From an uncultured delta proteobacterium (GTDB lineage: Bacteria; Desulfobacterota; Syntrophia; Syntrophales; UBA2185), in the NCBI GenBank assembly GCA_963695875.1, contig CAVOID010000011.1, positions 64,001-128,000 of the forward strand: a stretch of 64,000 nucleotides of DNA, given 5' to 3'. Shown piece by piece: positions 39,629 through 48,728 of this stretch. Positions within the stretch are counted from its first letter, which is position 1. Each line of letters begins with the position of its first letter. The notes beneath the pieces were generated by a model. The model did no database searches, was not told the origin of the DNA, and was given only the letters and a program-made list of their open reading frames with translations. A program made the position numbers and the translations under genes.

Positions 39629-39811
39629 ATGAAAATTCAAGAGATTCGTGAGATTGCGAGGGCACAGGGTGTTAATGCGCTCATTGGTCGAACCAAGCAG
39701 GATATAATCCGTGATATTCAGATCAGTGAAGGCAATTCACCGTGTTTTCGGACTAAAAATGCATGTGAGAACGATTGTTTGTGGAAAAGGGACTGCATAC
39801 TCAACAAATAA
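39629..39811 (+). CDS. Small SAP/Rho-N-like protein with Cys-rich C-terminus
   Basis: MKIQEIREIA...KQDIIRDIQISEGNSPCF...C...CLWKRDC. Confidence 0.7.
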   Translation: MKIQEIREIARAQGVNALIGRTKQDIIRDIQISEGNSPCFRTKNACENDCLWKRDCILNK

Positions 39812-40189
39812 ATTTACGTTTCGCTTTAATTAATCGGCATTCAGAACTATGGATTCTGGAGTGCTATCAGAGACTACAGTTCAAATGGTAATCTTCACTC
39901 CAATTTCAAAAATGAAAGTTACTGCTTTGTAGGTGTAGCAAATGCTATCCTTTTTATCTCGTTCTTCCTGAAGTCTTGTTTTTCTAATTCAGCCAATATA
40001 TTCATTATTTCATATGGTAAACATTATTTATTCCACAATGAAAGATGCCGGTAGGCTAACCGTCATTATGCAGGAGGTACTCACGATTCTAAGATATTTC
40101 GAGGGTTGTAATCATATTATTCCCGATTGTCATATCACGGCGAATGTTTATAAAATATTATGGGTCATATTTTACTGAAAGGAACGTTT

Positions 40190-40708
40190 ATGAAAGCAAC
40201 CTTTAAGTGGCTTGTTCATTTTTTTCTGATATGCAGTCTCCTCTTCATTTATTCTTTTCCGAATGCTGCGAGGGCAGAGCAGATCACTAATGTAGTGGAG
40301 AGCGACCAAGCTGACGATTTTACCCTGCAAGATTTGAATGGGAATGACGTCAGTCTGAGCGATTATAAAGGGAGAACGGTCATTCTATTATTCATGACTA
40401 CATGGATTCGCGACTGCTGGAAGGTGATCCCTCATATGAAGGAAATATATGCTCACTATGATTCAAAAGGTCTGGCTATTTTTAATATTGATATCATGGA
40501 ATCAAGAAAAAAGGTGGCGCACTTTTCAAAAGAATACGACATCCCCTATCCAACTCTTTTGGATGAAGATGGAAAACTCTCTCTCAAATACGGGGTTTAT
40601 AGCGTGCCAGTCGTGGTTCTGATCAACGGTGAAGGCCGGATCATCTGTTGGAATTGTTCGTCGCTAGACAAGCTGCTGGAGAAACAATTCGAAATGAAGC
40701 AGAAGTAA
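40190..40708 (+). CDS. TlpA/redoxin family thioredoxin-fold protein with atypical active site
   Basis: DFTLQDLNG..VSLSDYKG, FMTTW-IRDC, YGVYSVP, C-terminal CWNC. Confidence 0.8.
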   Translation: MKATFKWLVHFFLICSLLFIYSFPNAARAEQITNVVESDQADDFTLQDLNGNDVSLSDYKGRTVILLFMTTWIRDCWKVIPHMKEIYAHYDSKGLAIFNIDIMESRKKVAHFSKEYDIPYPTLLDEDGKLSLKYGVYSVPVVVLINGEGRIICWNCSSLDKLLEKQFEMKQK

Positions 40709-40778
40709 CAGCAAAATATTTTGTCCATACCGAATTTTGCTCTAATCTTGTTCTCACTAATATAAGGAGGGTAAAAAG

Positions 40779-41147
40779 ATGATTAGTATCAAGATGGGGA
40801 AAATGAGCGGTTTGGTTTACATATTGCCGGTCATGTTTATGATCATTCTGCTGACTTCCTGTGCGACAATGGGCAAGGCTTATCATAAATATTTAATGAA
40901 AGGCAGCATCATAGAAACCTCGGACGATGGTGTGTACCTCTGCATTGGTACAAGAGACGGTGCAAAAGTAGGTCAGGAGTTCGATGTCTACAAAATCATC
41001 ACAATCTCACATGCTAGGTCGACGTTCCAAAGAGTACATGCAGGAAAGGTAAAGATCACGGAAATTGTTGATGAGCACTTTGCAAAAGCAAAGGTTATTT
41101 CCGGTAAAGCAGAAAAGAATGACATTGTGGAATTATCCGCACCTTAA
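40779..41147 (+). CDS. Hypothetical lipoprotein (FlgT C-terminal-like beta-barrel)
   Basis: Lipobox LTSC; VYLCIG..DGAKVGQEFDVY...GKVKITEI. Confidence 0.6.
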   Translation: MISIKMGKMSGLVYILPVMFMIILLTSCATMGKAYHKYLMKGSIIETSDDGVYLCIGTRDGAKVGQEFDVYKIITISHARSTFQRVHAGKVKITEIVDEHFAKAKVISGKAEKNDIVELSAP

Positions 41148-41230
41148 TGTGCGATTCAGATTGTTGGAGAAGATGCAAAACCACGTTTTAGATATCTACT
41201 TTTATCTTTAAAAAGGAAAGGAGGCAAATT

Positions 41231-41806
41231 ATGTACTTGAAAGTAAAGAAAATATTTTTGGGGTCAGTCATACTGCTTTTTGTTCTGTCCGTGGCTGTTG
41301 CTACTGCCCAGCAGAGTGCTCCTGCCATCAGCGGTCAAGATCAACAGTTGGTGAATGAGCTGAAAGGCAAAAATGGAAAACAGGCGATGGAACTGGCTTA
41401 TCAATGGAAGCAGACGAATATCGATGTTGTGAGTTTCGTGACCCCAGATGCAGTCCATTTCAAGTTCAAAGATGGAACGGAGAAAGAAGTACCCCTGCCG
41501 GCGGATCAAATGGTCGTATCCATCGCTCCATACATCAATAAGACTCACCCGTGTTCGACGCACTATATGTCGAAGTGCGACGGAGAACTGAAGAATACAC
41601 CCGTAAAGGTCAAGGCCGTAACCGCCCAAGGCAAGGTACTGATCAACAAGACGATTAAAACACCCTATTACGGTTTTATCGATCTCTGGCTACCAAGAGA
41701 TCAGGAGATCAATCTGTTCGTAAGCGCCATGGGTAAGAAAGCAACGGGAAAAATATATACATATAGAAACAGCAAGACCTGCGATACCACACTGAAGCTC
41801 GAATAA
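41231..41806 (+). CDS. CueP-family periplasmic metal (copper)-binding protein
   Basis: Signal peptide; VSIAPYINKTHPCSTHYMSKCDGEL, GFIDLWLPRD, KTCDTTLKL. Confidence 0.8.
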   Translation: MYLKVKKIFLGSVILLFVLSVAVATAQQSAPAISGQDQQLVNELKGKNGKQAMELAYQWKQTNIDVVSFVTPDAVHFKFKDGTEKEVPLPADQMVVSIAPYINKTHPCSTHYMSKCDGELKNTPVKVKAVTAQGKVLINKTIKTPYYGFIDLWLPRDQEINLFVSAMGKKATGKIYTYRNSKTCDTTLKLE

Positions 41807-41937
41807 TGAGACCCGTTTTTATGAAGTGGCTGGCCGGGAAACGCGAATTGATGTTGAAGATAAAGTCGTTTGTTGGCAGGGAAAAGGAACAAGCGATTAT
41901 ACACTTGAGCAATGCCGTTTCGCGTGCCACACTCGTG

Positions 41938-42827
41938 ATGAGTCGAATAGCCAAAACAATATACGGCAGGCTGAGAAAAATTGTAAAAGACTTGAGCGGC
42001 GTCGTTTCCAGCGGATATCCGTATTACAGGCATTCGCTGCCGGTGCGCATTATGCACTGGAGCAATGTTGTTTTGCTTGCCATACTCCTGATGAGCGGTC
42101 TCAATATTTTCAACGCCCATCCGGCGCTCTACTGGGGCAAGTCAGTCTTACAGCGGCGTTCCCCCCGTATTGGAGTTGCGGGGCAAAGAAGACGATGAAG
42201 GAGAAATCTCCGGCGTCACCCGCATCTTCGGCCACGAATTCGATACAACCGGATTCCTCGGCGCCTCCAGAGACGCGGCGGGAGAATTAACCGAACGTGG
42301 CTTCCCATCCTGGCTTACCATACCCGACTGAGCGATGGCTTGCCATGGCGCGGCGCTGGCACTTTTTTATCGCCTGGCTGCTCGTGGTAAACGGCATCAC
42401 CTTTGTGACCTACTCCATTGTGAGCAGGCATTTGCATCGTGATCTTGTTCCCACGAGGCAGGATTGGCGTTCGATAGGCAGATCGATTATCGATCATCTG
42501 CGCTTTCGACATCCCACAGGCGAGGCGGCCAAGCACTACAACGTACTGCAGAAATGCGCCTATCTGGTGGTGATCTTTTTCCTTCTCCCCCTGATGATCC
42601 TGATGGGACTGGGTATGTCGCCGGCGCTGGACGCATTGTTCCCCGGCTGGGTGGATATCTTTTCCGGCCGACAATCCGTAAGGACGATCCATTTCGTTGT
42701 CGCCTGGGCGCTGGTGCTGTTCGTGATCATTCACGTGTTTATGGTAATCGTCAGCGGCTTCTGGAACAACCTTCGCTCGATGATTACAGGATACTACAGG
42801 ATCGAATCGGAGGCGGATCATGAGTGA
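41938..42827 (+). CDS. Cytochrome b/b6-domain membrane protein (YdhU-like); frameshifted, start uncertain
   Basis: YRHSLPVRIMHW, SGLNIFNAHPALYWG, RRWHFF, YNVLQKCAY, RTIHF. Confidence 0.8.
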
Positions 42828-43596
42828 TGACAACAAGCTCACCCGGCGTAGTCTCATGACGCGCCTTCTTGCCGGCGCAAGCGTAGTGGTGCTTAGCGGC
42901 TGCGAAAAACTTTCGGAAACCACCTGGTTTCCCAAGGTGTTGGGTTTAGGCGAAAAGGCTACGTATAAAATTCAAAGGCTGGTCCTGCCGCGCAAAGCGA
43001 TGGCGCAGGAATTCACAGAAACCGACCTGTCACCGCAATTCCGCAGCAACGGGACATCAATGCCGAATAATCCAACATACATGGCGCTGGCAGCCAAAGG
43101 ATTTACGGACTATCGCCTCGAGGTGGGCGGTCTGGTTGAACGGCCCATGACTTTTTCGCTTGCCGACATTCGAAAGTTTCCCAGTCGCACCCAGATAACG
43201 CGCCATGATTGCGTTGAGGGGTGGAGCGCAATAGGCATGTGGAAGGGGGCGCGCCTCAGCGCGCTGCTCGAAGCAGTACATCTGAAGCCCAATGCCCGTT
43301 ATGTCGTTTTCCACTGCGCAGACCCGATGGAAGAAGATGGCAGCTCCCCCTATTACGAGAGCATCGACCTGGAAGACGCTTTTCACCCGCAGACGATACT
43401 CGCTTATGAACTGAACGGCAAACCATTGCCAATCCAGAACGGCGCACCGCTTCGCTTGCGATTGGAGCGGCAGCTTGGCTACAAAATGGCGAAGTATGTC
43501 ATGCGCCTTGAAATCGTCGAAGATTTTTCCGGGATAGCCGGGGGGAAAGGGGGTTACTGGGAAGACCAGGGATACGAGTGGTATGCCGGCATCTAA
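42820..43596 (+). CDS. Molybdopterin-dependent oxidoreductase (sulfite oxidase/MsrP-like), Tat-exported
   Basis: TRRSLM Tat motif, HDCVEGWS, NGAPLRL, GYKMAKYV, GYWEDQGY. Confidence 0.88.
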   Translation: MSDDNKLTRRSLMTRLLAGASVVVLSGCEKLSETTWFPKVLGLGEKATYKIQRLVLPRKAMAQEFTETDLSPQFRSNGTSMPNNPTYMALAAKGFTDYRLEVGGLVERPMTFSLADIRKFPSRTQITRHDCVEGWSAIGMWKGARLSALLEAVHLKPNARYVVFHCADPMEEDGSSPYYESIDLEDAFHPQTILAYELNGKPLPIQNGAPLRLRLERQLGYKMAKYVMRLEIVEDFSGIAGGKGGYWEDQGYEWYAGI

Positions 43597-43910
43597 GAAG
43601 TCCTGACAATAACACGGAGGATAGTTTCAAGAGCATCATCAACGGGTCAGGAATAGGGACATCCTTTACATATTTACATTTGCAAAATGGATCATATGAT
43701 TCTTCATGATCTATCTCAATCCCGCGGGTGAATCAAAACCGCGCCAACAATCCACAATGTAGAGCATTTCAATCGATAATCTTCATTATCCACTTCATGG
43801 TGATGTTCACACTTTGTAGGTGCTATACGTAACAAAATGGTGATTGCAACTTAGGTTTATTAGGTTCATCATCTATCTGTATTTCCTATTGAATCACAGG
43901 AAAGGAGATA

Positions 43911-45080
43911 GTGATGGACCAGATGGCCATAGAAAATTGCAGTATCGTTTCAGCGAAAGAATCCCTGCCGGAATTTGGAATCAATGATCGACAGGCAGGG
44001 TTTCTCCCATCCATTATTTTACCCGAGATCTATAGAGGAAAATCAGGGAAGGTAGTTTATCCTGCGTACACGCAGGAGGCAAAAGCTCTTCACTGGGCAT
44101 TGGATCGCCTTGCAGGCTGGGAATTGCCGGGCAAAGAGCATGTTGAGGAATATTTTCGGAGCATGTATCGGCGGAACTTCCGACCGAGGACATACGCCAG
44201 TGCTCTGACTGCTATTTACGACTTCCTCACCGGTGTCAGGGATTCGGGAAAGACCTGTCTGGAAGAGATCACCAAGCGTGACATTGAAGCTTTTATTGAA
44301 CATGAGCAGGATCGCGGTTTGATGCTATCGACGGTGCGGACGAAACTGCACTGCGTCAATGCTTTTTTGGGTTATGCGATTGACGCAGGGGTTGTCAGCG
44401 CTGATGTCCTGGCAAGAAGGATTCGCCTGAAAAAGCCCGAGACATTGCCGCGGGCCATGGATCCGGACGATGTGAAGCAATTACTCTCCGTTATCGATAA
44501 TCCGAGAGACCGGGCCATGATCATGGTTCTTTTACGGACGGGGATGAGAATCGGCGAGCTGCTCAACACCAAGATGCAGGATCTTCACCTCAGGGATCGC
44601 AGGATTGATATTTACGAGGGAGAAAAGAACCGGCTAGGGACGGGTTGTTTATCTCAGTGATGATGCGATGAGTGCTTTGAAGGCATGGCTCAAGATGAGA
44701 GACGCCTCATAAGGAGTTTCTCTTTTACGCCACAGGGCAGGAAAAGCATGTCCTATAGTACGGCCCATCTTATCTTTGAACAGTATCTCACGAAAGCCGG
44801 TCTTACCCATAAGGGGTATTCCCTTCATGCGCTTCGGCATACCTTTGCCAGTGAGCTTCTCAATGCCGGCATGCGGATCGAGTGTCTTCAGCCGTTGATG
44901 GGGCATACCTCTCTGGATGTGACACGGCGCTATGCCCGGCTCACGGACAAGACCAGGGAGGAAGAGTACTTCAGAGCCATGACGATTATAGAAAGGGGGG
45001 AGATTGATGGCCATTACCGATGCGATCATCAGGTACAGGCGTTTCTTGAAGAGAAGGAACGTCTCACCGAATACCGTTAA
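43911..45080 (+). CDS. Tyrosine recombinase A (frameshift near 44640)
   Basis: LLRTGMRIGE, GEKNR, HALRHT, LMGH, TRRYA catalytic set. Confidence 0.88.
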
Positions 45081-45901
45081 GAACTATTTGAACGGCCTGA
45101 AACATTTTGTTCTCTGGCTTGATGTGCCGATCGAGGAAGCCACATACCGGAAGATTATTGCGTATATGGATTATCTCGCTCGGCAAACGGTTAAAGCCAA
45201 AGACGATCAACTGTTATCTCAACAGCGTATGTCAGTTTTATCACTACCTCTCGGAAGAAGAGGAAGTCCCGATCGTCAACCCGGTGAAGAAGCCGAATAT
45301 CATGAAGCTCCCCAGGGGACTTCCCAAGCATCTGAAAGACGAGCAGATAGAGATCCTCTTCAAGAATCTGAAAGGGCCAAGGGATCGAGCCATGTTCATG
45401 ATTATGCTCCGATGCGGATTACGGGTGGAAGAAGTGGCCCATCTTTCCCTCGGCAACATTGATCTTAAACGCAGAATCCTGCTTATCCAGGACGGCAAGG
45501 GCGCCAAGGATCGGATTGTCTATATCAGCAACGATGCCCTTCCTGCTCTCCTGGAATATCTCAGGGTGAGACCGGCAAATAAAGTAAAAAAGGTCTTTCT
45601 GGTAGAGAAAGGGCCTCTTACCGGACAGCCTATATCCATTCGCGGCATCCAGAAACGGATGGAATATTATGCCCGCAAAACAAACCTGAGAATCTCCTGT
45701 CATCATCTTCGCCATACGATGGCCACACAGATGTTGAATGCCGACACCGATCTCTCTACGATCCAGGATCTCCTGGGGCACAACTCCATCAGAACAACGC
45801 AACGTTACTGCCGGATATCAAACCCGAAAGTACGAAGGGATTACTTCAAAGCCATGGAGGTCATCATGCAACGAACGGCTGGCAACCCAGATAATCCTTG
45901 A
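45007..45901 (+). CDS. Tyrosine recombinase B (frameshift near 45180)
   Basis: CGLRVEE, GKGAKDR, HHLRHT, LLGH, TQRYC; overlaps recombinase A by 74 nt. Confidence 0.88.
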
Positions 45902-46231
45902 CGAAAGAACAAAACTATGAAATCTTAAACACAACTTAACACATTAATATCAATAGGAAATACAGATTATGTTACGTATAGGTAGGTGAACTAACAACAA
46001 CCCCCGTTTTACCGCTTCCTTCCTATTATTCACGAATCGCCAACCTAAATGAAGATGGAGGGTTTCAACCCGTAATCGTTCATGTTGTTTAATTAATTAT
46101 TATGATATGAATTATAGAAATCTATACTTTCGGTTCTGTGAGAGCTTGGGGCCTCCCAGAGTATCTAGGCGTCTATCTCGGTTGGCGATCCGTAGCCGCA
46201 CCATATATTAAAAACAATAGCAGTTTAAGTT

Positions 46232-46857
46232 ATGAAGATTTTTAATAAAATATTAAGCTATAAAGATAAATATAATCTTAAGAAAAAATTAGTTGAAATA
46301 GAAAAACAAATAGATCACACCTATAAGCCAGCCAAGGATATTTGTTTGTCAATTGTGCAGGCAGCAGAAAATTGTAAGCTGATTTTAAGAACAGACTTGG
46401 GTTTTGAAGATAAAAAGAAAAAGACCTTGCTGAAATGTTGGTATTTTATGAGTACCTTTATTTTTTCATACATCTAACACTAAGATTAGCATTTGGTAAA
46501 TTTACAGAAACACAAATAAAGAAATTGCGAGAATATATGGGGCCGGTAATTGTTGGCGCCGCAATTGATTCATACACAATGGATTGGCCAAAAGATTTGA
46601 AAGAAGGTGTGAAAAAAGAATTTTATGACAAATTAAACCAGGCTGAGCTTGAATATTCAGAGTGCAAGGTTATATTAGACAGGGATAGACCATTTTCCGA
46701 TAATGCTCTGTTTACTAAATTAGCAAAAAATATAACAGAGCTTACGGGACATAATAATAATCCGTTAAAGATAGTAGAAATAATATTAACATCAATAGAA
46801 GAATATGCGAAAATGGATTTGAATAAGTTAGTAGATGAGGCAGCAAACACATTATAG
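46232..46857 (+). CDS. AT-rich hypothetical protein (frameshift near 46430)
   Basis: Two overlapping ORFs (46232-46477, 46435-46857) separated by an A-run; no recognisable motif. Confidence 0.55.
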
Positions 46858-46973
46858 CAAGGCAGTCGACCGGGCAGCCTCATAGCCGCCGATGAGTTTA
46901 GTCGTGTATTTCAAGTCGTAATCATCGGTAGAATATCATCACATGAATTAAGGACTTGTAGATACCGTTCTTG

Positions 46974-47943
46974 TCAAGCGAAAATTGGCTTATAATTTGG
47001 ATCATACATTTTCCCGGATTTCAGGACTCCAAAGATAACGTGAACCAGTTTCCGCATAATCGCACAGACAATCACTTTCCCATTTTTGCCTTTATCTTTT
47101 AGGCGGTTATAAAAAGCGATCATAACAGGATTGCATTGAATCGATACCAATGCCGGCATGTACAGGGCTTTCCTGAGCCGTGCATGTCCGATTTTGCATA
47201 ATCTGGGTTTGCCTTTAATAGATGATCCTGAGAGCGTTTCCTTCGGTGCGAGTCCGATGAATGCCACCATTTCACGAACATGGTTGAATTTTTCCAGATC
47301 ATCTAATTCTGCCAGGATGTGAGGAATGGTTACCTTACCAATAGCGGGAATAGAATCCAGCAAATCCTTTTTCCGTTTAAGATTTGGATTTTGTCCTATC
47401 AGATCGGCAATTTGTTTTCTGATTTTTTCAATCTCCTGATCCAAATAAGCGATATGTTCTTTGATCAAAAGAGATGACAGATTCATGTGCCGTGCTGATC
47501 CGATTCTTCTCCTGGCTTCGCATGTCGATCAGGCTATCAACCCGTCTGACCAGAGCTCTCAGGGATCTGATCTCCGGTGAAGGTGGAATCCATGCACCTG
47601 GTTTCATAGCCAGACAGAACCGGGCAATCAAGGCGGCATCAAGCTTATCCGTCTTGGTGCGAATCAGTTCACTCTGAGCAAATCCCTTGATCCGGGCGGG
47701 ATTGACAATGCTGACAATGTGGCCGGCTTCATGAAGATAGATCGCCAGATCCTCTCCATAGTTGCCCGTGGCTTCCAGACAGGCATGGACCTTTTGAATT
47801 CCCTGTTTCTCAAGCCAGAGCCTCAACGTCTCAAAACCTTCTGCCGAATTCTTGCAGGTCTTATGTTTTGTCTTCCCATCTACAAGAAGTGCGGCATCGA
47901 ATTTCTGTTTCGCAATATCTATCCCAAGAACCGATACTGACAT
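46974..47943 (-). CDS. IS110 family DEDD recombinase/transposase (frameshift near 47470)
   Basis: LGIDIAK, CLEATG, KTDKLDA (RuvC-like DEDD); SGSS catalytic Ser; LRKALYMPA, MRKL. Confidence 0.93.
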
Positions 47944-47985
47944 ATAAATACCCCTCTTAAATAAATATTACCCTTCAGTAAAATA

Positions 47986-48161
47986 GCTTCGTTCGAATCA
48001 ACCTTGCAAGTGCAAACTCATTCCCATCTGAGAAGGTTTATGATACCGTACGAGTTATTGAACAAAGCAGTGGGAAGAGGATCTACTCTACAAACCATGC
48101 TCTCTGGCATCAGGTGAAACACAGATTCACTCCTCCCATTTTACCCCGGCGTCCCAGGGTA
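47986..48161 (-). ncRNA. IS110 bridge RNA (5' stem, target-binding loop, donor-binding loop)
   Basis: LTG GTTTCACCT (48112-20), RTG TTGTAG (48088-93), LDG ACGGTATC (48042-49), RDG GCAAG (48003-07); closing stems TGGGAGGAG/CTCTTCCCA and GCTTTGTTC/GAACGAAGC. Confidence 0.85.
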
Positions 48162-48289
48162 GTTTATAACATTCATTAATCCATAAGAACACAAGGTGTA
48201 GCCGAGCAGTCATCCGGAACTTAATTCAGCAATATACATCGAGCAAAGTTTTAATCATCGCAGTTTATTCGTTCCAATACTTGAAATTT

Positions 48290-48398
48290 TATATTAACTC
48301 AGTTAATCAGAATCGTTGTCGCTTTGACAGATGTGTGGAGATGAGGAAGAAAAAAATCCTTGAGCTGCATATAATGTAGCCGTCGAAGATTATCATTG
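48290..48398 (+). pseudogene. HigB-like toxin remnant
   Basis: Frame ends AYNVAVEDYH* (DYH* C-terminus typical of HigB) immediately upstream of higA; no intact start; 5' limit approximate. Confidence 0.5.
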
Positions 48399-48410
48399 AA
48401 AAGGATTATT

Positions 48411-48728
48411 ATGAGAACACGAAAAAGACCGCCATCTCATCCGGGATCGATTCTCAAGCTTCATTACTTGGACCCGTCAGGAATCAGCGTTACAGATCTT
48501 GCGAAGGATCTGAGATTGTCGAGAAAAACAGTATCCAAAATATTGAACGAACGTGGCGCTGTGACAACGGATGTTGCCTTGCGGTTGTCCAGAGCGTTTG
48601 ATACTACTCCTGAATTATGGTTGAACCTTCAGAGAAATTACGATCTCTGGCATACGGCGAATGAAACGACTGATTGGCAGGCAATAAGACCTATACTTGA
48701 AAATTGCACATGTAAGCGCATAAGGTGA
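48411..48728 (+). CDS. higA: HigA family addiction-module antitoxin
   Basis: PSHPGSIL, HTH, ALRLSRAFDTTPELWLNLQRNYDLW. Confidence 0.88.
   Translation: MRTRKRPPSHPGSILKLHYLDPSGISVTDLAKDLRLSRKTVSKILNERGAVTTDVALRLSRAFDTTPELWLNLQRNYDLWHTANETTDWQAIRPILENCTCKRIR

Follow-up and report, generated by a model that had tools for sequence, protein, structure and literature searches.

An IS110-family element and a two-recombinase element interrupt the same conserved non-coding repeat in an uncultured Syntrophales bacterium

Cre/lox sites consist of inverted arms around an asymmetric spacer, and the transposon Tn554 inserts at a short core. For the insertion sequence IS621, the part of the published description available to us gives a target loop and a donor loop, in which the left guide repeats the top-strand sequence of the left target, core included, and the right guide is the complement of the core and the right target. 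Elements of the IS1111 type, according to a portion of PMC11187229, target integron attC sites (ISKpn4 and ISPst6) or the ends of Tn21-family transposons (IS4321/IS5075). We describe here a 64,000-bp stretch of DNA from an uncultured Syntrophales bacterium, bases 64001–128000 of contig C11 (hereafter the window), in which an IS110-family element (46962–48193, minus strand) and an element with two tyrosine recombinase genes (43823–45981; the duo element) both interrupt TTGTAGGTG. The assembly comprises 2.86 Mb in 16 contigs and is 82.6% complete.

TTGTAGGTG was found to be the conserved core of a non-coding repeat of approximately 90 bp, which we call the pad. The pad is a natural shared docking site for mobile DNA in this bacterium and its relatives. 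We consider it probable, at roughly 0.68, that two unrelated site-specific elements have specialized independently, each by its own chemistry, on this one conserved multi-copy repeat. An earlier note, made from the letters of the window, had proposed a dispersed landing motif used by an RNA-guided and a protein-guided element, and that proposal holds across genomes. The counts across relatives given below are counts of kin, not of independent events.

The two insertions and their sites

The features of the window on which the analysis is based are listed below; motif M is a sequence block in the left arm of the pad.

39868 to 39935, plus strand: left arm of the empty pad, with motif M (TTCAAATGGTAATC) about 40 nucleotides (nt) ahead of the core and TTGTAGGTG at 39927–39935; nhmmer left-arm profile, E 3.5e-12
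39929 to 39970, plus strand: 42-bp unit of the empty pad, GTAGGTG-TAG-CAAATGC-..-CTTCCTG; right-arm profile, E 4e-9
39936 to 39947, no strand: palindrome TAGCA-AA-TGCTA (TAGCAAATGCTA), private to the empty pad copy; consensus of the other copies, TAACAAATACTA
43759 to 43822, plus strand: pad left arm and left core GTAGGTG (43816–43822) at the duo insertion; nhmmer E 1.4e-4; empty counterpart in the relative L206
43823 to 45981, plus strand: duo element of class 1, 2,159 bp, with perfect 12-bp terminal inverted repeats CTATACGTAACA / TGTTACGTATAG; PF00589 and SAM-like domains
about 43914 to about 45030, plus strand: first recombinase gene of the duo; the second runs from about 45007 to 45901
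45982 to 45988, plus strand: right core copy GTAGGTG, then a diverged pad right arm (AACTAACAAC..CTTCCTTCCT), from the sequence
46902 to 46961, plus strand: pad left arm at the IS110 insertion, ending ..CTTGT-AG; nhmmer E 1.3e-6
46962 to 48193, minus strand: IS110-family element, with DEDD_Tnp_IS110 (PF01548, 2e-27) and Transposase_20 (PF02371, 2.4e-24) on its two half-frames; AG (= CT) core at 46960–46961 and 48194–48195
47944 to 48193, minus strand: bridge-RNA region of the IS110 element, with left guide GTTTCACCT at 48112–48120, right guide TTTGTAG at 48088–48094, and a donor loop with ACGGTATCA
48196 to 48260, plus strand: pad right flank at the IS110 site (GTGTAGCC.. then CTTAATTCAGCAATATACAT..), resembling the empty-pad tail at 39975–40040 in a by-eye comparison

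At the IS110 insertion the left flank ends ..GGACTTGT-AG (..CTTGT-AG), the element begins with ATACCG.. at 46962, and its last bases, ..GAACACA to 48193, are followed by AG-GTGTAGCC. Removal of the element together with one AG restored CTTGTAGGTGTAGCC, the target site that the earlier note had reconstructed. The transposase frame in the window (47943 to 46974) is split into 171 and 170 amino acids (aa) by an extra base near 47467; a second copy on contig C6, 90.7% identical, has an uninterrupted transposase of 322 aa. The full copies found in this genome and in five relatives, seven in total, all lie between ..CAC-CT and CT-AC(A/T)(A/T).., and thus share the core dinucleotide CT at both junctions (7/7), with no terminal inverted repeats and no target duplication, as in the IS110 group. 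Distinct left junctions ended in CACCT in 17 of 18 cases and in CATCT in the other, and the element was present in 17 of 41 genomes.

The first 200 nt of nine IS110 copies gave a consensus fold with two modules, each consisting of a stem, an internal loop and a hairpin. In the internal loop of the first module, GTTTCACCT lies on the 5′ side and TTTGTAG on the 3′ side; in the second module, the donor loop, ACGGTATCA matches the element's own end, ACGGTAT-CT. Because double changes were present in only 3 of the 57 pairs, the fold rests mainly on energy and on the analogy with IS621. The guides of the window copy program TTTGT-AG-GTGAAAC in pad orientation: left guide GTTTCACCT and right guide TTTGTAG would read the two strands around the CT core and direct integration between TTTGT-AG and GTGAAAC-type flanks. 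The C6 copy matches the site that it occupies at 9/9 left-guide and 7/7 right-guide positions.

One further trace of the element lies on contig C7 (38248–38323), where a 76-bp stub of the IS110 5′ end stops exactly before the left-guide-coding bases and is joined to a pad left arm; similar stubs of IS110 positions 1–74 are found in relatives. The guide-coding DNA resembles the target, and a deletion between it and the insertion site could have produced the C7 stub.

The duo element is joined to its left flank as ..CACTTTGTAGGTG followed by CTATACGTAACA.. and to its right flank as ..TGTTACGTATAG followed by GTAGGTGAACT, with GTAGGTG at 43816–43822 and again at 45982–45988. Removing the element and one 7-bp repeat restored TTTGTAGGTGAACT, which bears out the claim that the motif interrupted is the same one. 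A contiguous empty version of this site is present in a closed relative genome (L206), where the left and right flanks of the window meet at GTAGGTA. An intact relative of the element (L034) encodes recombinases of 364 and 297 aa in genes that overlap by 4 nt; both proteins are nearest to the NCBIfam XerA/XerC/XerD models, at scores below the cut-offs. In an intact copy only two open reading frames (ORFs) of at least 80 aa were found on the coding strand.

The two-recombinase element family is widespread. The first recombinase was found in 7 of 22 genomes of the family to which the bacterium belongs, and a scan of public genomes gave 211 relatives of it, from which 80 loci were kept and 68 analyzed for inverted ends. 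By their titles, the records kept are mostly Syntrophales/Smithella-type metagenome-assembled genomes (MAGs), with some Thermodesulfovibrionales, Nitrospira and others. Ends of the CTATACGTA type (or CTGTACGTA type) were present in 26 of the 68 loci, the other 42 having no inverted repeat or an unrelated one. The 7-bp flank repeat placed 24 of these 26 in classes (GTAGGTG, 11; CTTCCTG, 6; CAAATAC, 4; CTTGCCA, 3) and left two outside them. These elements are approximately 2.1–2.5 kb long and consist of two Xer-like recombinases, terminal inverted repeats and the 7-bp flank repeat.

The junctions of the duo elements show which copy of the core belongs to the element. GTAGGTG stands at the right end of all 11 full class-1 duos from public MAG records. 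The 32 distinct right-end junctions collected from the family carried GTAGGTG in exact form (12) or with one mismatch (3), CTTCCTG in exact form (10) or with one mismatch (1), CAAATAC or CAAATGC (2), or other sequences (4). The eight distinct left junctions comprised GTAGGTG (4), two variants of it (GAGGATG and GAAGGTG), CAAATAC (1) and one unrelated sequence. Within a duo class the right core copy is constant and the left copy varies (GAGGATG, GAAGGTG, CAAGGTG); we therefore conclude that the duo carries its own core and that the left copy reflects the target. The earlier note's proposal was open to refutation by duo copies inserted at unrelated sequences and a motif no more frequent than chance; instead, the other class-1 copies share the insertion core, and the motif exceeds chance expectation (see below). 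Given the chemistry of tyrosine recombinases, the duo would circularize to form a lox-like site (12-bp arm, GTAGGTG, 12-bp arm), and its two Xer-like recombinases would exchange strands with the GTAGGTG of a pad over the 7-bp overlap, leaving a core on both sides.

At one locus (L126, 3264–3290) a degenerate second duo left end (CTATAAGTAACAATTC) lies directly after the right core of a full duo, an arrangement that suggests tandem or serial insertions at one core.

The AG at which IS110 cuts lies inside the 7-bp overlap of the duo, and the guides of IS110 match the duo's restored site, AGTTCAC-CT-ACAAA, at 7/9 left and 7/7 right positions, as had been reported. These coinciding crossover points and this guide match are the only points in favor of a mechanistic link, also raised by the earlier note, in which one element would use the machinery of the other; the bridge RNA, for example, would also guide the tyrosine recombinases. 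Any pad copy, however, would be expected to give this guide match. Judged against its own kind, each element is complete, IS110 with its own complete bridge RNA and the duo with its own core and recombinases; the two are found separately in many genomes; and the remaining duo classes insert at different cores and have no IS110 close by. For these reasons we conclude that neither element needs the other; we found no evidence of a link and regard one as extremely improbable. On our reading, the cut falls inside the overlap because both elements aim at the same invariant bases, not because they depend on each other. Since each insertion splits the full site of the other element, IS110 and the duo are likely to compete for empty pads.

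We also considered whether three occurrences of a 9-mer in one window could have arisen by chance. The window has two intact copies of TTGTAGGTG where 0.29 are expected, plus the copy split by IS110, and two copies were reached in 5 of 100 shuffles of the window. In the whole genome, however, there are 26 copies against 9.0–11.6 expected from Markov models of orders 1–4, an excess of 2.2–2.9-fold, and the copies are mostly intergenic, 15 of the 26 lying outside any open frame of at least 100 aa. This excess is accounted for by the larger repeat of which the 9-mer forms the core. In addition, an empty site exists and the junctions are repeated in many genomes; these cross-genome junctions refute the chance explanation.

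The pad, its copies and its occupants

The layout of the pad was taken from BLAST searches of the genome with the flanks and from 40 copies in relatives. Motif M (consensus TTCAAnnnGTAATC) lies at approximately −48 to −35, followed by variable bases, TT, GTAGGTG and, in most copies, TAACAAATACTATCCTTTTTATCTCGTTCTTCCTG. The pad would thus be a lineage-restricted repeat consisting of the motif TTTCAAnnnGTAATC, some 35–40 variable bases, (T)TTGTAGGTG and commonly TAACAAATACTATCCTTTTTATCTCGTTCTTCCTG, with TTGTAGGTG as its most conserved block. A profile of the left arm detected 13 sites at E<0.01 in the bacterium's own genome, 4 of which are occupied: two by IS110 copies, one by the 76-bp IS110 stub on C7, and one by a duo. 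Matches to the DNA of the empty pad were present in 20 of 22 family genomes. When 121 genomes sampled across the order were searched for the core-plus-unit pattern with up to 3 mismatches, 6 had it, 5 of them in the family; a reversed control pattern gave 2 matches. The unoccupied 13-mer TTGTAGGTGTAGC at 39927–39939, described in the earlier note as an exact copy of the IS110 site, is indeed such a copy, and it is the sole intact one in the 2.86-Mb assembly.

The same note had called the motif REP-like and had pointed to a palindrome beside the empty copy. The pad resembles the repetitive extragenic palindromic sequences (REP/REPIN) in being dispersed, intergenic and multi-copy, but it lacks their hairpin-forming palindrome. 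The palindrome TAGCA-AA-TGCTA is present at 39936–39947; it is private to that one copy, however, and is not part of the family repeat. As single-stranded DNA the pad folded no better than shuffled sequence in five folds (z of +0.45, +0.73, −0.18, −1.97 and −2.05), and an Rfam search of the region and 15 pad loci gave no family except a group II intron at the relative locus L053. The structural sense of REP-like was therefore rejected. Counts in a scan for promoters and terminators equaled those in shuffles, with none at pads. A small gene was rejected as well, as the short frames over the core vary in length and frame and the opposite strand has no long ORF.

Some pads have a different right arm, GTAGGTG..CAATAACC..ATTTCATTTTTTCATTGC.CGCCCTTGAGCATAACGGG, which is conserved across genomes (C3:333155 and C11:223728 in this genome; L054, L125 and L019 in relatives). 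On the opposite strand of this arm a frame of about 20 codons, beginning MKYAGYCLHLQ, crosses the core.

The window contains three pads, co-oriented and within 7 kb, each 3′ of plus-strand genes. Such an arrangement would be expected if pads were the junction sites of a cassette system, integron-like but not an integron, so that both elements land in recombination sites. Segments between the pads do recur at unrelated places in relatives (an MsrQ/MsrP-like gene pair, a helix-turn-helix gene and a multi-copy 60-aa gene), and the adjacency of the group II intron and a pad in L053 recalls the attC-targeting introns described in the part of PMC3001079 that was available. Nevertheless, no integron integrase (IntI) scored above the cut-off in this 82.6%-complete genome, the best hit to TIGR02249 being 82 bits against 265; the pad forms no hairpin; and the MsrQP module, the one module compared, is homologous to DNA of two relatives as far as 16 nt beyond its stop codon on one side and a point within the upstream gene on the other, neither limit falling at a core. 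On the same three grounds (no fold signal, no IntI above the cut-off, and boundaries of that module off the pad cores) the pad was rejected as an integron attC site, and we consider such a cassette system very unlikely.

The consensus of the 42-bp pad unit in the family holds the cores of three duo classes, GTAGGTG, CAAATAC and CTTCCTG. Homology blocks between pad copies start or stop at GTAGGTG and CTTCCTG: by a count made by eye, approximately 29 matches start at query positions 86–95, 30 start at 120–125, and 21 end at 127–136. In 10 of the 32 right-end junctions, including one on contig C10 of this genome, CTTCCTG joins a truncated class-2 right end to a pad tail. Also by eye, motif M lies 32–48 nt from the core, on the left side for class 1 and on the right side for class 2, and M may have a role in duo targeting. 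In the MAG L135 a full IS110 and a full duo are adjacent in one pad copy, in the order ..GTAG, IS110, ..ACAAG-GTG, duo, GTAGGTG...

Some of these observations also fit the main rival to independent specialization, namely that the pad belongs to the life cycle of the duo family, as a non-autonomous partner or as an accumulated scar that keeps the attachment (att) cores of several classes, and that IS110 targets the attachment site of another mobile element. The three class-specific cores in one unit, the breaks in homology at the cores and the truncated right ends joined to pad tails all favor it. In addition, motif M resembles, by eye, the duo subterminal sequence GTAACAAAATGGTGATTG; class 3 duos insert in an M-like motif; and class-1 duos with pad-like left arms occur in MAGs labelled as other orders. 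IS110/IS1111 elements at attC sites and transposon ends provide a precedent (PMC11187229, in the part available). However, blastn-short comparison of 18 pad copies with the interiors of 24 duos gave no similarity at E≤0.01, and the best local alignments between pad and duo reached only z 3.8–4.1. Pads are present where the duo recombinase was not found, as in the closed genome G007, in G016 and in the overall ratio of 20/22 to 7/22 genomes, and full class-2 duos lack the pad unit on the left flank. We consider an origin of the pad in the duo cycle unlikely.

A third kind of element may use the pad. In L053 (G013:C66, 187–356) TTGTAGG is followed, after about 8 nt, by a group II intron (RF02003, 87.5 bits), and in L061 an intron-like GTGCGCC.. 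follows CAAATGGTAA at position 153, inside motif M. A more speculative proposal, possible but doubtful, is that the pad is a multi-tenant docking module, with nested cores for at least three duo classes, a guide site for IS110 and perhaps a site for a group II intron. It would persist either as a safe harbor favored by the host, which draws mobile DNA away from genes, or as a non-autonomous element that duo recombinases, reading M plus a core, would mobilize in trans; the elements would diversify their cores and guides to partition the pads and to compete for them.

Metagenomes were also searched. Twenty runs from peat, sediment and soil contained at most 0.27 of the sampled words, and four of them (X1, X2, X3 and X6) were examined as contigs. 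Contig pieces end at the element borders (for example, 45963–46958 and 48194–48484), and the summed contig depth over 43823–45981 and 46962–48193 exceeded that of the flanks by a factor of tens to hundreds in these four runs, which are from peat and freshwater sediment. Such depth fits elements that are abundant and multi-copy in peat and freshwater-sediment communities.

Single-base frame breaks are present in both duo recombinase genes and in the window's IS110 transposase gene (44635, 45178 and 47467). Similar single-base changes split a cytochrome b561 gene (41826–42290 / 42297–42827) and a pair of small ORFs (46232–46477 / 46435–46857). Because the metagenome contigs are one base shorter at 44635, 45177/45178 and 47467, the same places as the breaks in the two elements, the frame breaks in the duo, IS110 and nearby genes may be indel errors of the long-read assembly and not decay or pseudogenes.

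Two stretches near the empty pad recur elsewhere. The 60-aa gene upstream of it (39629–39811), which matched no Pfam family, is present several times over in relatives; one contig of G001, for example, has two copies. A 90-bp stretch at 40071–40161, 5′ of a thioredoxin-like gene and with an M-like motif, recurs with 81% identity 5′ of an MsrQ-like gene in G002. Between this stretch and MsrQ, the genome described here has 1.6 kb more than G002, containing thioredoxin-like, lipoprotein-like and CueP genes.

Probable independent specialization on one repeat

Several results weigh against independent specialization of the two elements on the pad, and some of them concern how well guides and sites agree. 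The window's IS110 site has 3 mismatches in 14 to the element's own guides, and seven sites elsewhere in the genome, several of them pads, have only one mismatch. When left guide and flank were compared copy by copy at the four variable positions, 35 of 72 matched as against 31.3 in shuffles, of which 1393 of 10000 reached 35, so that the agreement is not significant. The right guide does go with the flank in six of the seven full copies (TAAGTAG at ACTTA in C6 and L007; TTTGTAG at ACAAR in L001, L003, L005 and L006; L002 being the exception), a number of related copies that is too few for statistics. In support of the guides, five of the eight left-guide variants have an exact cognate in the set of 18 distinct right-arm 4-mers that 34 pad entries provide; the entry CCGT among the 34 is spurious, having been read from an IS110-occupied site. 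The left-arm profile matched the flank in only 6 of 10 class-1 duo copies from public MAGs and in 3 of 5 IS110 flanks in relatives; an eleventh class-1 row, the joined L135 sequence, was likewise without a match. The weak similarities between the pad and duo ends, with z up to 4.1, leave room for a common origin. That the pad is a harmless host repeat is an assumption. Finally, no circular junction or excision product was present among the metagenome contigs of the four runs, although contig data cannot show excision. Nor did the contigs listed include a join spanning a whole element, which does not count as evidence that such joins are absent.

On balance we favor independent specialization at the probability given above. 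Two solutions to the problem of finding a safe, repeated place in the genome, RNA guides and protein recognition, would then have converged on the same few base pairs, in many uncultured anaerobes from peat and sediments. The pads offer a natural system for measuring how a bridge-RNA recombinase and a tyrosine-recombinase transposon compete for targets, and one that has diversified naturally, with at least eight left-guide variants and at least four classes of carried 7-bp core. The duo elements, small (approximately 2.1–2.5 kb) and with a target-matching core of their own, may be of interest as compact integrases.

Comparison with described systems

No published two-recombinase element of this build, and no IS110 element sharing a site with one, was found in the literature searched, whose coverage excluded subscription journals and supplements. 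The closest described systems each resemble one part of the locus. The IS110 element is like those of the IS621/ISPpu10 type, so far as the available portions of their descriptions extend, in having a transposase with DEDD and Transposase_20 domains, an upstream non-coding region with two loops, a CT core, neither inverted ends nor a target duplication, and a multi-copy intergenic target. It differs in that the target here is no hairpin REP and is also the attachment site of a tyrosine recombinase, and in that the guides often mismatch the occupied sites at 2–3 bases.

The IS1111 family provides the nearest parallel to the sharing itself, since there too, according to part of PMC11187229, an RNA-guided DEDD element sits in the site of a tyrosine recombinase system or in the sequence of another transposon. 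In contrast to that family, the element described here is of the IS110 type, with the non-coding region upstream and no subterminal inverted repeats, and the other user of the site is a small autonomous transposon and not an integron.

For the duo element, Tn554 and its actinobacterial relatives share two adjacent, co-oriented tyrosine recombinase genes and site-specific insertion (PMC3414803, in part). The duo differs from Tn554 in having no TnpC and no long N-terminal extension, and in having Xer-sized proteins (364 and 297 aa), perfect 12-bp inverted ends and a length of approximately 2.1–2.5 kb. With two ORFs only and perfect inverted ends, it was rejected as a member of the Tn554 family. 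The recombinase-in-trio (RIT) elements, as described in part of the same source, are likewise small and made up only of overlapping tyrosine recombinase genes; the duo has two such genes, not three, and was for that reason rejected as a RIT element, and its host range also differs, consisting by record title of Syntrophales/Smithella-type and other anaerobe MAGs. The predicted circular junction of the duo, with inverted arms around an asymmetric spacer (12-7-12), would resemble the lox site of Cre/loxP, but the site described here is part of a transposon-like element, which integrates into copies of the spacer in the chromosome.

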